From a virus (taxonomy: Duplodnaviria; Heunggongvirae; Uroviricota; Caudoviricetes): 17,885 nucleotides of DNA. Below, piece after piece: positions 68 through 4,779 of the stretch (positions are counted from its first letter, which is position 1; each line of letters opens with the position of its first letter). The position numbers and the translations under genes are program-made. The notes under the pieces are model-generated. The model saw nothing but the letters and a program-made list of their open reading frames with translations. It did not search any database and was not told the origin of the DNA. The DNA lies in the IMG/VR virus record IMGVR_UViG_2671180349_000004. One strand, given 5' to 3'.

Positions 68-2740
68 TTGGGTGTGGATCACTATTGCACCGTTCGTGAC
101 AATAAAAGCCTGGACGCACAGGAAAAACAGGACAAAACCATCACACTGGCAGGAGACGCCAGAAAACAGGCACGCGGCGCGGTGGATGAAGCCATGGCCT
201 CGCTGCGCCTGCTGCCGTCCTATCTGCGCGATCCGCTTATTCGCCACCTCTCCTTCCTGCGCAAGAAGCAGGAAGCCGATCGTCAGAAAGGCAAAAAGAG
301 CTGGCAGGCGGAACGCTACGCGCGCGGAACCCTGCGCAAAATATTCGAACGTCTGGACCGCACCGATCACCGCTGGCTGACACCGGGTTATCGCTCCCTT
401 GCCGGACGCGAACGCCTGGACGATTTGCTTTACCTGCCGCAGCTCAACAAACACCAGATACAGACGCTGGCCACCATGACGGCGGCGATGTTCAGCAGCA
501 CCTTCGAAAAACTCTGCGATGGCTTTGGCGCTACTGATGGCGAACTGACCATGGATGTAACGCTGAAGGCGTATCAGATGCTGGCCCGCATGGCGTTACA
601 CCTGCACGCCATGCCTCCACATTATGACGCACTGACAACAGACAAAGACCGGAGGAACGAACCGGACACGGAGCTGCTGCCGGGCGCAATCCTTCGCCTG
701 ACCTGTGCGGAATGGTGGAAACGCAAACTGTGGCTGTTACGTTGCGAGTGGAGAGAAGAACAACTCCGCGCCGCCTGTCTGGTTTCCAGAAAAACATCAC
801 CCTATCTGAGCCAGGACGCGTTAAGCGAGTTTCACGCACAGCGCGAGAAAACACGCGATTTCCTGAAAAGTTTCATGCTGGAAAACGAAGACGGGTTCAC
901 GATTGATCTCGAGACGGTGTATTACGCGGGAGTAAGTAACCCGGTCCACCGTAAAGCAGAAATGATGGCCACCATGAAGGGACTGGAACTTCTGGCCGAA
1001 GCCCGTGGCGACAGAGCGGTGTTTCTGACTGTCACCTGCCCGTCAAAATACCACGCCACAACAGAGAACGGTCATCCGAATCCCAAATGGAACGGGGCCA
1101 CCATGCGCGACTCCAGCGATTACCTGGTTAACACGTTTTTTGCGGCGGTCCGCAAAAAACTGAACCGCGATGGCCTGCGCTGGTATGGCATCCGCACGGT
1201 GGAGCCTCACCATGACGGCACCGTGCACTGGCATATGATGGTCTTTGCACATCCGGACGAGATTGAAACCATCGTGTCCCATGTCTGCGATATTGCCATT
1301 CAGGAAGACCGCCACGAGCTGGGCGATGACATAACTCCGCGTTTTAAGGCTGAGTACGTAGACGGCTCAAAAGGCACGCCAACCAGCTACATCGCCACCT
1401 ACATCGGAAAGAACCTGGACAGCCGCGCCGTGGATGGCATCGACCCGAAAACGGGCAAGCCACGCGTTGACCACGAAACCGGAAAATCAATGGCAGAGAG
1501 CGTGGAACGCGCCATCGGCTGGGCGCGCCTTCACCGGGTCCGCCAGTTCCAGTTCTTTGGCATTCCCTCTCGTCAGGTATGGCGTGAACTCCGCCGCCTT
1601 GCCAGCCAGATGGCACGCAACCCGGAAGGCCCACAACGGCTGAAGGATGATGCAATGGATGCGGTACTCGCTGCCGCTGATGCCGGGTGTTTTGCCACCT
1701 ACATTGAGAAACAGGGCGGCGTACTTGTTCCACGCAAAGACTACCTGATTCGCACCGCCTACGACCTCGCAGATGAGCTGAACGATTACGGCGAACAGAG
1801 CGTACAGATTTACGGGATCTGGTCACCACTCATCGGGGAGTCTTCCCGTGTGTGCACACATCCGGATAACTGGAAGCTGGTAAGACGTAAACCGGAAGCG
1901 GAAGACAGCGCCCGCGAAAATGGTTTTGACCTTCAGGGCGGCCCTGCCGCCCCTTGGACTCGTGGCAATAACTGTCCCCGTGTACAGGAAACGGACAACA
2001 ACGGGACAGAACAGCCGGAAGAACGGCCAGCACCGTGGCCGCAGCTCCCTGACGGCGTTGAAGTGAACGAATGGATGCGCTCACTGAAACGGCACGAACG
2101 CCGGGCGCTGATGCGTTCGCTTCGTGACAAACAGGCAAAAAACAGCAGTGATGAAATGCAGAGCTGGACACAGAGCCGCAAACAGCAGCGGCCTTTGCCT
2201 GATAACCACGAATTACTCGCTAAAGAATGGCGGGAGTCTGCTGAATCTCTCGGCCTGCATATCGGTGAACAGCAGATGCAGCACCTGTTACGGGGCGGCA
2301 GTCTGTACGTTGACGGCAGCATCATTGCACCGCAGGGATTTGAAATTGTACGCAAACCGGATACCCGACCGGACAGCCGGATCACGCAGCTCTGGCAGCG
2401 CCTGAGCCGTAACCACGGCGTAAGCAGCACGGAGATCCGCTATAACCCGGTCGCCAGCTATCTGGAACAGCTGGGGGCATCAGACCCCGAAGCCGCCGCA
2501 CGCCTGGCATCCACACTTCAGCAAGACCAGAACACCATGAAAACACCCGTTACCGTGCTTTCTGACATGCTGCGCGCCATCCGCGACGCAGAGCACGCAC
2601 AGAGAATCAGTGAAACCACTGAACGCGCCCGCCGCAAAGCAGACCTGCTGCGGGGTGGCCTGACCATTGGAAACAAAAAACAGACAGAAACGGGATTCAC
2701 AAATCCCGTAAATGAGCAAAAAACGCGCCGCGATATATGA
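68..2740 (+). CDS. A: Replication initiation endonuclease gpA (rolling-circle initiator, HUH-type)
   Basis: 890-aa ORF. TTG at 68 is the first start after the in-frame stop at 56-58; alternative starts are GTG 74, GTG 182 and ATG 194, so the N-terminus is uncertain. Translation contains [15 protein letters not shown] (H-hydrophobic-H metal motif) and YIATYIGKN (paired catalytic tyrosines; compare P2 A YIAKYIAKN as recalled), plus [14 protein letters not shown] near the C-terminal third. Stop TGA at 2738-2740. Confidence 0.85.
2690..2709. promoter_or_regulatory. 20-bp palindrome ACGGGATT-caca-AATCCCGT (copy 1), inside the last codons of gene A
   Basis: Read directly: 8-bp perfect arms with a 4-nt spacer. 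A near-identical copy lies 73 bp downstream. Candidate operator or centromere-like site for the downstream ParR-like protein, or a gene A / ori-associated site. Confidence 0.4.
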
Positions 2741-2762
2741 AGCGCGCATAAAACAGGCAAAA

Positions 2763-2782
2763 ACGGGATTTCAGAATCCCGT
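2763..2782. promoter_or_regulatory. 20-bp palindrome ACGGGATT-tcag-AATCCCGT (copy 2), 35 bp upstream of the parM-like start
   Basis: Same 8-bp arms as copy 1. Overlaps the expected -35 region of the parM-like promoter (AT-rich TAATTAAT block at 2789-2797 as a possible -10), consistent with an autoregulatory operator. Confidence 0.4.
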
Positions 2783-2816
2783 AAACGATTAATTAATCAA
2801 CATAAGGAAAAGCGAC

Positions 2817-3776
2817 ATGAAAATTTGTATCGATGACGGCTCCACCAACATCAAGCTGGCATGGACTGAGAACGGCGAACGCCGCAACGCCATCAGCCCG
2901 AACAGCTTCAAGTCGGAATGGTCTGCGCCGTTCGGTGGCACGCAGCCCGCGAACTACATGCTTGATGGCGTGCGCTATGGTTTTGATCCGGTCAGCGATC
3001 GCTTTGTCCAGACGACCGACACGCAATACCAGTACAGCGATGTGAATGTCATTGCCATTCATCACGCGCTGGTCAAATCAGGCATCACACCACAGGAAGT
3101 GGATGTGGTTGTCACCCTGCCACTGAGCGAATATTTCGACACAAACGCACAGCCGGACATGGCCAACATCAACCGCAAAAAAGCAAACGTCATGCGCCCG
3201 GTGGCGTACCAGAACGGAAAAGCATTCACTATCCGTAACGTACGGGTTATGCCTGAATCCATTCCGGCTGGTTTTAAAGCACTGGCTGACATGAGTCCGT
3301 TTGAATCCCTGCTGATTGTGGATTTAGGCGGAACCACGCTGGATGTGGCAAAGGTTCAGGGACAACTGGCAGGTATCAGCCAGGTGTTTTGCGATCCACA
3401 CGTAGGCGTTTCCCTGATGGCCGATGCCGTACTGTCGGTGATGGCCACTAACGGTATGCGCACCAGTCACCACATCGCCAATACCATTATCGAACATCGC
3501 CATGATGAAGCCTGGCTGCGCCAGCACATCCACAATGACGCGCATTACGCCAGCCTGATGGCGGTTATTCGTGAAAAGGAAGAAACACTGAAACAACGCG
3601 TGATCCGCGCGCTGGCGGTTTTTTCGGGTTACGGGCGGGTGATGGTTGTCGGTGGCGGGGCGGAGATTGTGGCACCCGCTATCCGCGAAGCCTGCGGAGT
3701 TAATGCGACTTTCATCGCGGACGGAGTGCCACAATTTGCTCTGGTTAATGGGCTGTACGCAATGAACAAGGAGTAA
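2817..3776 (+). CDS. parM: ParM/StbA-family actin-fold ATPase (type II partition cytomotive protein)
   Basis: 319 aa; RBS AAGGAAAA at 2804-2811. N-terminus MKICIDDGSTNIKLAW and blocks YSDVNVIAIHHAL, KKANVMRPV, VRVMPESIPAG, LLIVDLGGTTLDV, VGVSLM, RVMVVGGGAE, LVNGLY align with plasmid R1 ParM (MLVFIDDGSTNIKLQW..., recalled from memory). Actin-fold phosphate-1 (DDGST), phosphate-2 (DLGGTT) and adenosine (VGGGA) motifs are intact. Confidence 0.9.
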   Translation: MKICIDDGSTNIKLAWTENGERRNAISPNSFKSEWSAPFGGTQPANYMLDGVRYGFDPVSDRFVQTTDTQYQYSDVNVIAIHHALVKSGITPQEVDVVVTLPLSEYFDTNAQPDMANINRKKANVMRPVAYQNGKAFTIRNVRVMPESIPAGFKALADMSPFESLLIVDLGGTTLDVAKVQGQLAGISQVFCDPHVGVSLMADAVLSVMATNGMRTSHHIANTIIEHRHDEAWLRQHIHNDAHYASLMAVIREKEETLKQRVIRALAVFSGYGRVMVVGGGAEIVAPAIREACGVNATFIADGVPQFALVNGLYAMNKE

Positions 3777-3780
3777 ACCA

Positions 3781-4269: not shown

Positions 4270-4276
4270 CGTTCGC

Positions 4277-4460
4277 ATTGTGAGCGACAAGATAATTGCG
4301 CGGCATTGTCCATGCAAAACGCCCCAATAGCAGCAACTATTGGTGCGTAAAACTCGGTCGGACTCACTTAACCTGATATGCGTGCCTTCCGAAGTAAATC
4401 AAAATGTGCGTCGTATATTTTATTGCTTACACGCACCTCTGTAAAGGCACGCATATTTTT
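4277..4460 (+). ncRNA. Candidate structured 5' leader or small RNA (about 185 nt) ending in a terminator-like stem plus U-tract
   Basis: Hairpin CCAATAG-cagcaa-CTATTGG at 4324-4343. A 13-bp perfect inverted repeat ATATGCGTGCCTT (4376-4388) / AAGGCACGCATAT (4444-4456) encloses a 55-nt segment with an inner GTGCGT/ACGCAC pairing (4406-4411 / 4431-4436) and is followed by TTTT (4457-4460). The RBS and start of the downstream ORF follow within 20 nt. Confidence 0.3.
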
Positions 4461-4477
4461 CCTATGAGGTAAATAAA

Positions 4478-4747
4478 GTGCGGGCTAAAACAGGTATTTG
4501 CAAGAACCCTCATCGTTATAATCCAACATTTCTGTCTCTCCCTGAATATCAAGGACAAGAAGGTCGGCACAAATGCGCTGCCTGTGCTTTTGAGCTAGGC
4601 ATAAAAGATGCGCTTGAAGGACGCGCTATGGCTCAGAATGATTTAGTTTTAGCTAACATTCCGTTTAGCCAGGCTGGAACTGTAAGGCACAGAGATGCCT
4701 ATGAAGCATATGTTCGTGGTTGGCGATTAATACACAGCAACAATTGA
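4478..4747 (+). CDS. Hypothetical small protein (89 aa), possible Cys/His metal-binding motif
   Basis: GTG start at 4478 with RBS GAGGT at 4466-4470. C8-x3-H12 ... H31-x-C33-x2-C36 arrangement. Followed 10 nt downstream by a strong intrinsic terminator. No family recognised from memory. Confidence 0.5.
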   Translation: MRAKTGICKNPHRYNPTFLSLPEYQGQEGRHKCAACAFELGIKDALEGRAMAQNDLVLANIPFSQAGTVRHRDAYEAYVRGWRLIHSNN

Positions 4748-4756
4748 TACTTTTGA

Positions 4757-4779
4757 AGCGCCGATAAGGCGCTTTTTTT
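4757..4779 (+). terminator. Rho-independent terminator: stem AGCGCC / GGCGCT, loop GATAA, then seven T
   Basis: Read directly: 4757-4762 pairs with 4768-4773, followed by a T-run to 4779. Lies 10 nt after the stop of the 89-aa ORF. Confidence 0.75.

Follow-up and report, generated by a model that had tools for sequence, protein, structure and literature searches.

Why would a phage that integrates into the chromosome of its host keep a plasmid segregation machine under purifying selection? The question is raised by roughly a quarter of complete Escherichia coli genomes, which carry a ParM/ParR pair inside an integrated P2-type prophage, and it is posed here by a 17,885-nucleotide stretch of viral DNA (IMG/VR record IMGVR_UViG_2671180349_000004), the whole of which we call the window. 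Between its replication gene A and its portal gene Q the window encodes ParM, ParR and ORF89, a small Cys/His protein that follows an AT-rich block. A preliminary description of the locus had seen in this interval a single cargo island of a composition that it did not recognise. We found instead that the interval consists of two independent units, a partition operon (about 2674-4092) and a moron cassette (4093-4782). The reading that we favour, and consider moderately probable, is that of a P88-like prophage in which ParMR would segregate transient circular copies of the phage and in which the swappable cassette would encode a nucleic-acid-binding conflict gene, ORF89.

By alignment, the window is a P88-like prophage of E. 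coli (genus Xuanwuvirus, family Peduoviridae, P2 family). P88 and the window are collinear at 96-97% identity everywhere but at 4093-4782, and the Xuanwuvirus relatives share the order A, parM, parR, a few variable genes, portal and terminase. Specifically, the members compared (P88, 520873, phiSM, P884B11, Chuche and PhiR44_2) all follow the arrangement A-parM-parR-cargo-cos-Q-P, with 95-97% identity outside the cassette. The IMG/VR contig L034 agrees with the window at 100% identity across 8.3 kb (window 478-8744).

An ORF scan recovered the three open reading frames (319, 103 and 89 aa) exactly as they had first been described, and the ParM/ParR pair proved to be genuine. The first gene, parM (stbA; 2817-3776, plus strand), is predicted to encode an actin-fold partition ATPase of 319 aa; its product matched Pfam StbA_N (6.9e-82), the ParM C-terminal domain (6.2e-69) and phrog_691 ('partition protein'). 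Comparison with the structure of R1 ParM (1MWK) gave an end-to-end match over residues 2-316 (E 1.3e-92), and the alignment revealed that the nucleotide-binding motifs DDGSTNIK, DLGGTT(LD) and GGGAE are conserved. The second gene, parR (stbB; 3781-4092, plus strand), starts 5 nt past the parM stop and encodes a putative centromere-binding adaptor of 103 aa (Pfam Plasmid_stab_B, 9.8e-24; phrog_2515, partition protein), for which a sequence search found no relative of solved structure. With both the ATPase and the adaptor recognisable from their sequences, parM-parR is classed as a type II (R1-type) partition operon. The ParMRC systems of R1 and NR1 (stbAB) likewise place parM before parR with repeats upstream, and ParM could be aligned with that of R1 over its full length; however, the identity is only about 50%, and the operon of the window resides in an integrating phage. 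A second ParR allele, 56% identical overall and the same in its first 18 residues, was seen in E. coli O157:H7 strain 7409 (contig L062, 4541-4855) and, in the rows sampled, mainly in O157:H7-type strains. In strain 7409, parMR is intact within a degraded prophage, which an IS3 element truncates right after parR.

We located the limits of the exchangeable DNA by blastn against P88, phiSM and phage 520873, which placed the swap boundaries at 4092/4093 and at 4764-4783. The left break coincides exactly with the parR stop codon. Since collinearity with P88 is broken only at the cassette and the blastn boundaries exclude the partition genes, parMR belongs to the backbone of the lineage, and the cargo is confined to 4093-4782. 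An identical parMR is followed by other cargos in P88 (two unrelated ORFs), in phiSM (a minus-strand 'memP' gene) and in the circular record pZ1323PEC0009-2 (a 135-aa ORF). Moreover, in the supplementary tables of Rousset et al., StbA and Plasmid_stab_B appear beside many other neighbours, and in our own data parMR and ORF89 each occur without the other. The two units also differ in base composition: GC content is 55.1% for the whole window, 57.1% for gene A, 54.4% for parM and 52.6% for parR, but 41.2% for the whole cassette and 38.7% at 4093-4477, so that the AT-rich block of the preliminary description is real. A comparison of A-to-Q intervals across relatives had been proposed to see whether the cargo recurs as one unit; it does not, since parMR recurs with unrelated cargos.

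The interval itself is a known one. Rousset et al. (2022) described gpA-gpQ, beside cos, as a hotspot of P2 phages and noted a putative partition system there in about a quarter of P2-like phages. It is the tin/old position, as had been proposed for the window, although the proposed end at 4779 falls short: the interval runs to 5233, and about 450 bp of conserved backbone had been omitted. Hotspot cargo, taken as DNA between gpA and gpQ near cos that varies among syntenic prophages, comprises 4093-4782 only, as the P88 lineage exchanges just these 690 bp after parR. parMR does not vary within the P88 lineage; it does so across all P2-like phages. The composition is also familiar, the same arrangement being present in RefSeq NC_049344 and in 166 complete E. 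coli genomes. Thus the element, the partition genes in the hotspot, the plasmid hypothesis and the ORF89 arrangement are all already known. A search of a literature library found no relevant paper on P88 StbA or on the CP-933T/Sp13 partition genes.

How general is the association, and is it maintained? Among 5426 complete E. coli genomes, 1303 gave some match to parMR, distributed over 1449 chromosomal and 2 plasmid places, and 1278 matched at a cover of at least 80%. The 3' half of the P88-type A gene, at the same minimal cover, was found in 1355 genomes. parMR therefore accompanies about 94% of P88-type A genes and is close to fixed in the P88 lineage, and only the 690 bp behind parR are exchanged. 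The E. coli P88-type parM/parR operon is a fixed and already described part of its lineage, and RefSeq annotates it routinely. The preliminary description had held that its proposal would fall if the pair turned out to be a routinely annotated stbAB insertion flanked by insertion sequence (IS) elements or plasmid backbone; the annotation is indeed routine, but neither an IS element nor plasmid backbone flanks the operon. Among the fetched loci, the ratio of nonsynonymous to synonymous polymorphism (pN/pS) was 0.09 for parM and 0.28 for parR, as compared with 0.008 for the portal gene and 0.26 for the 3' end of gene A. Every unique allele in this set, 19 of parM and 13 of parR, is intact. The operon is under purifying selection.

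The relation to plasmid partition genes was examined in the 5000 best-scoring plasmid records. Six matched ParM at 95% identity or more and 4994 fell below 60%, with nothing between; in the rows sampled, the lower group reached 52% identity or less. The DNA-level match in one of the high-identity plasmid records, H191 (439 kb), includes the adjoining replication-endonuclease gene, which identifies that copy as this phage. On these sequence comparisons, the phage ParM is a clade distinct from the plasmid ParMs, and an identity of at most 52% points to an old capture that has been maintained since. The only other phage with a ParM relative was the P1-like phage-plasmid D6, whose StbA is 48% identical and whose annotators noted its similarity to P88 StbA.

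A partition operon of this type would be expected to act on a centromere. The only repeat structure that adjoins the operon is a pair of 42-nt direct repeats, detected by a repeat scan at 2674-2788 (copies at 2674-2715 and 2747-2788, 73 bp apart) and straddling the gene A stop, and for this reason we propose it as parC or as a ParR operator. Each copy holds a palindrome with 8-bp arms, ACGGGATT-N4-AATCCCGT (2690-2709 and 2763-2782), which occurs twice in the window against an expectation of 0.04 and is kept with small changes in P88, phiSM and 520873. The corresponding hairpins gave z scores of -4.5 and -3.4. The parC of R1, however, consists of ten iterons, compared with the two palindromic repeats of the window, and the repeats can be regarded as a weak candidate for the centromere or operator. 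We found no consensus promoter at these repeats or elsewhere between gene A and parM, and no plus-strand terminator with a U-run between the two genes, where the hairpins are U-less. From these two absences we infer that parMR is probably co-transcribed with the early replication operon.

The cassette behind parR (4093-4782, plus strand, 690 bp) is present in 166 of the 5426 genomes, always in the chromosome and at 95% identity or more. Phage 520873 (NC_049344) carries the very same cassette at 99% identity, with the locus annotated as ParM, partition protein and hypothetical protein. The genome matches span 655-669 bp as compared with 690 bp in the window, which is consistent with a single copy of a 21-bp unit, AAAATGCTCACGTTTATAGAG, that a repeat scan found as two tandem copies at 4107-4148. 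Two copies exist only in the window and in the identical contig L034; 30 of 32 aligned IMG/VR loci have one. We therefore rejected the tandem repeat as a set of iterons or a centromere, as it is a recent duplication confined to the window and L034.

Within the cassette lie, in this order, a promoter-like site, a leader some 200 nt long, ORF89 and a terminator. The promoter-like site, TTGACA-16-TAAGAT (4242-4269, plus strand, 10 of 12 positions matching), lies inside a perfect 11-bp inverted repeat (4234-4244 and 4288-4298), and the whole (4234-4298) is possibly an operator. Downstream, inverted-repeat analysis and folding identified a long hairpin (4375-4460, plus strand), in which a perfect 13-bp stem (4376-4388 / 4444-4456) encloses a second hairpin and which resembles a terminator or attenuator. 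Its folding energy over 4375-4457 is -29.1 kcal/mol (z = -5.4), a value equalled by none of 200 shuffles. The hairpin ends 8 nt before the Shine-Dalgarno sequence (GAGG, 4466-4469), and a U-run (4456-4460) lies 6-10 nt 5' of it. The promoter and the structured leader of the preliminary description are thus upheld in part: the site is present, but the region has no excess of promoter-like sites (2, against 3.1 expected), and the hairpin is strong, but the leader as a whole is only modestly structured (z = -2.26). The terminator that had been assigned to ORF89 was found at 4755-4775 (plus strand; 8-bp stem and T-run, -13.8 kcal/mol, z = -2.9). A search of Rfam with 2500-5500 on both strands returned no family at E <= 1. 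Copies of the cassette from 33 IMG/VR contigs and the 166 genomes are near-identical, with about 15 variable sites, none of them compensatory. A scan of contigs for ORF89 relatives yielded only four distant homologues, none with this leader, and the ORF89 homologues of other phages have no comparable one.

The leader hairpin probably attenuates or gates expression of ORF89. It is also conceivable that the leader is not a simple 5' untranslated region and is either a separate small RNA gene of about 185 nt, running from the promoter at 4242 to the U-run at 4460, or a target of a cis-antisense RNA transcribed from a minus-strand site at 4445..4417. A terminator-like hairpin directly before the Shine-Dalgarno sequence would suit the small RNA, and the minus-strand site, which also matches at 10 of 12 positions, and a minus-strand hairpin (4322-4348) followed by GGCGTTTTGC would suit the antisense RNA. 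However, with promoter-like matches at chance level, no Rfam family, an antisense fold of z = -1.05, no comparable leader at the homologues in other phages and copies too alike to offer covariation support, we consider either arrangement rather unlikely. Several other kinds of RNA-associated element were considered for the cassette and rejected. A type I toxin-antitoxin system does not fit a soluble and basic ORF89, and no convincing hydrophobic small ORF was found; a type III system would have tandem repeats between promoter and hairpin, where there are none, the sole tandem repeat being the recent duplication upstream of the promoter; and a retron is excluded by the lack of a reverse transcriptase.

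ORF89 (4478-4747, plus strand) begins with a GTG codon that has the GAGG sequence 8 nt upstream, and encodes a small basic protein of 89 aa with a Cys-His-Cys-Cys (CHCC) motif, confirming the Cys/His character first ascribed to it. It belongs to an unnamed family (phrog_3941, function unknown, 6e-49), gave no match in Pfam, NCBIfam or PADLOC, and goes by 'hypothetical protein' wherever a source gives it a name. PGAP annotates nothing under the cassette in over half of the genomes sampled from the 166 RefSeq genomes that carry it. An exhaustive phmmer search of 1.8 billion proteins returned 172 representative sequences, and a profile search returned 1628 clusters, all of them unnamed and lacking Pfam domains; by these searches, ORF89 is a member of a real gene family. 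Invariant or nearly invariant positions are C8, H12, C33, C36, R30-H31, Q65 and R70-H71, and the protein contains an internal pseudo-repeat, LPxSQxGxxRH. The Cys/His pattern suggests a four-ligand zinc site (Cys, His, Cys, Cys). Although the AlphaFold (AF2) model is confident (pLDDT 87), Foldseek found no fold match for it (E > 1 against the PDB, E > 0.2 against BFVD), and a PDB profile search gave a spurious match only. An Ogr/Delta-type late activator was rejected, since the sole Pfam match at E <= 0.1 is spurious (0.06) and the spacing in ORF89 is C-x3-H...C-x2-C.

Larger relatives of ORF89 offered a clue to its role. Among 53 longer proteins, fusions were found to NOV_C, a restriction-endonuclease-like domain (25), HNH/HNH_2 (14), DndB/DpdB (3), WYL (1) and HEPN (1), and 24 of the 53 matched the PADLOC candidate system PDC-S36. 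Such proteins carry the ORF89-like module outside their catalytic part, often in duplicate at the N-terminus: PDC-S36 and the NOV_C/HNH single-protein nucleases begin with one or two repeats homologous to ORF89 (phmmer E 1e-8 to 1e-4) and share with it the motif C..H...RHKC..C. ORF89 differs in having no nuclease (NOV_C) domain and does not match the PDC-S36 model, and PDC-S36 is itself only a candidate, on which we found no relevant paper. Stand-alone homologues occur in phages as well, at moron positions expressed during lysogeny. One lies after cI and before N in a P22-like Salmonella phage, the position of rex/sieB-type genes, and another between Q and the lysis genes of a Providencia phage. 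In Bacteroidales, homologues stand on either side of a module made up of a Dam-type methylase and DUF6996/6997/7226, with TIR, AbiEii and DUF3644 nearby.

Taken together, these observations suggest that ORF89 is the free-standing form of a small zinc-binding module, which is found elsewhere as the non-catalytic part of NOV_C- or HNH-type nucleases. It would bind nucleic acid and, expressed from the prophage, could exclude other phages or modulate restriction-type nucleases; we infer that it is a moron engaged in conflict between mobile elements. A more specific proposal would make ORF89 an anti-restriction decoy, a free copy of the recognition module that competes for a DNA feature or poisons the nuclease and so protects phage DNA. 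Its homology to the module that NOV_C and HNH nucleases carry besides their catalytic domain, its small single-domain size and the carriage of the family by phages would all agree with a decoy. We nevertheless think it unlikely, as the slots in question are usually expressed in the lysogen (after cI in the P22-like phage, the tin/old position here) and the Bacteroidales homologues sit not in phages but inside defence islands, by the methylase-linked module. Through ORF89, an unnamed family with over 1600 clusters is tied to the non-catalytic portion of numerous predicted restriction-type nucleases, a tie that could help to define the targets of these nucleases. It is a small lead; neither ORF89 nor ParMR changes the picture of a known phage lineage with a known hotspot.

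The Bacteroidales homologues provided a side observation. On three metagenome/Bacteroidales contigs (L007, L013 and L016), ORF89-family genes flank a pair consisting of a Dam-type methylase and DUF6996/DUF6997/DUF7226, in three arrangements, with DUF3644, TIR_2, AbiEii and RadC genes near it. The methylase-DUF pair and its ORF89-type protein may constitute an uncharacterised restriction-modification-like module.

What, then, would ParMR do for a P88-like phage? In our favoured reading, ParR would bind the repeats at 2674-2788, and ParM filaments would push apart circular, A-replicated extrachromosomal copies of the phage. Such copies could be present between infection and integration, once the prophage has excised, or in a plasmid-like carrier state adopted occasionally, and each daughter cell would thereby keep a phage copy. 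An episomal life had been suggested in the preliminary description and was already a published conjecture: Pfeifer et al. (2021) placed P88 in the VP882 group of phage-plasmids and suggested both episomal and integrative states, and Rousset et al. (2022), noting the partition system in P2-like phages, suggested a plasmid state. The P88 annotation, with which the window is collinear, does combine phage structural genes with plasmid-type partition/replication genes, the mark of a phage-plasmid in the sense of Pfeifer et al. (2021). A complete circular 34.5-kb P88-like genome with an integrase, pZ1323PEC0009-2 (NZ_CP148288.1), is recorded as a 'plasmid', and the 2.4-kb stretch that was compared, comprising cargo and parMR, recurs without a difference in a copy integrated in the chromosome of a second strain (NZ_CP148378.1; 100% identity). 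As for a prophage kept outside the chromosome, we found this one circular record, whereas 1449 of the 1451 parMR places are chromosomal.

A number of results weigh against this reading. P2-type repression would keep gene A off, which argues against stable plasmid replication. The chromosomal predominance, together with the integrase and C/Cox switch annotated in P88, implies that the partition function matters only transiently, if at all. The intact parMR of the O157 prophage, which is defective and unable to excise as a phage, misfits a purely phage-borne role. The assignment of the centromere is weak, with only two repeats to set against the ten iterons of R1 parC, and the second copy of the palindrome is degraded in the O157 allele. 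On the side of the cassette, promoter-like sites are at chance frequency, the leader gains no support from covariation, its copies all being 96% identical or more, PGAP often leaves ORF89 uncalled, and ORF89 is matched by no defence or anti-defence model and by no structural neighbour.

Other explanations must be set beside it. P88-like phages might routinely lysogenise as low-copy plasmids maintained by ParMR, a lifestyle for which the VP882 grouping, the like suggestion of Rousset et al., the circular 34.5-kb record and separate phage replicon records from complete-genome projects can all be cited. The P2-like Burkholderia phage KS14, experimentally a plasmid prophage, demonstrates that P2-type morphogenesis genes are compatible with such a life. 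However, gene A is missing from KS14, which has a plasmid RepB and ParA instead, and both KS14 and D6 carry plasmid-type replication or ParA genes and are extrachromosomal, whereas P88-like phages retain the rolling-circle gene A and the integrase, possess the C/Cox switch and are nearly always integrated; the circular records are rare and could derive from excision or induction. We consider a stable plasmid lifestyle distinctly unlikely. A role in the lytic cycle, in which ParMR as an early pair would position or separate replicating circles for packaging, like the tubulin and actin systems of phages, and would serve no inheritance, comes out as unlikely but deserving of more weight. P2 packages monomeric circles, parMR lies directly behind gene A with only U-less hairpins between, suggesting co-expression with replication, and it is almost always tied to a P88-type A. 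Yet the closest characterised relatives, R1 ParM and D6 StbA, act in partition, and the defective O157 prophage keeps parMR intact without head genes.

Could the operon have no partition role at all? That the whole interval of ParM, ParR, RNA and ORF89 is one defence or superinfection-exclusion system is suggested by its place in the gpA-gpQ hotspot, the home of many defence systems, and by the association of ORF89 relatives with defence genes. The search of PADLOC-DB v2 disagrees: neither ParM, ParR nor ORF89 matched a model of a known defence system at E <= 0.1, and the cassette corresponds to none of the defence systems known from the hotspot. In addition, parMR accompanies many unrelated cargos, the cassette begins immediately behind the parR stop, other phages carry ORF89 homologues but no parMR, and GC content differs between the two parts. 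A single system of this kind is very improbable, and nothing in our data supports the defence role once proposed for the filament pair. A decaying relic of an old plasmid-phage recombination, also put forward at first, commands hardly any probability. Membership in a ParM family typical of plasmids and the absence of an IS element or plasmid backbone nearby would fit such a relic. Nevertheless, the low pN/pS of parM, the intactness of every unique allele and the divergence from plasmid ParMs rule out a passive remnant, and 1278 genomes hold at least 80% of the operon. Finally, we regard as possible, if doubtful, a bolder account of both units. ParMR in P88-like prophages might serve the integrated element in a manner unrelated to plasmid partition, and ORF89 might be an undescribed zinc-binding 'reader' domain for nucleic acid, marked by C-x3-H...RH-x-C-x2-C and a degenerate second repeat, SQxGxxRH. 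Fused within a large group of single-protein NOV_C and HNH nucleases of restriction type, PDC-S36 included, the domain would recognise their targets; free, it would be a nuclease-free conflict gene disseminated by temperate phages, acting as exclusion factor or anti-restriction decoy and gated by the leader hairpin.

The genes and non-coding DNA that flank the two units belong to the conserved backbone. Replication gene A, of the P88 type (68-2740, plus strand, 890 aa), is the left anchor of the A-Q interval; it matched Pfam Phage_GPA (1.1e-128) and lies in a region 96.7% identical to P88. The Phage_GPA domain spans residues 129-453 only. The C-terminal stretch of about 440 residues has no Pfam domain, and the first of the parC-like repeats lies inside the last codons of the gene. 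The right anchor is the portal gene Q (5234-6280, minus strand; Pfam Phage_portal, 3.5e-18). Between the cassette and the portal gene, blastn and the alignment of loci delimited the conserved cos-proximal backbone (4783-5233). The cos site itself was not located in 4780-5233, where the 19-nt cohesive end of P2 has no match at three mismatches or fewer; the best ungapped match to the 19-mer is 13/19, at 4906-4924. At the right boundary of the cassette, TGCAC occurs three times at exact 10-bp phasing (4783-4807; GTTTGCAC / AGTGCAC / GTTTGCAC), and this triplet could serve as the binding site of a protein or as the joint at which cassettes recombine. Further along, a G-rich non-coding stretch (about 4960-5145) is hypervariable, with about 55 variable columns in some 190 nt across 32 loci whose identity is 96-100% outside it; the changes are mostly transitions, and their density is well above that of the neighbouring genes. 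A structured RNA in this stretch was considered but not supported, as the pairs proposed by RNAalifold showed only one-sided, G-U-compatible changes and no double compensatory pair. A bidirectional terminator follows the portal gene at 5183-5207.

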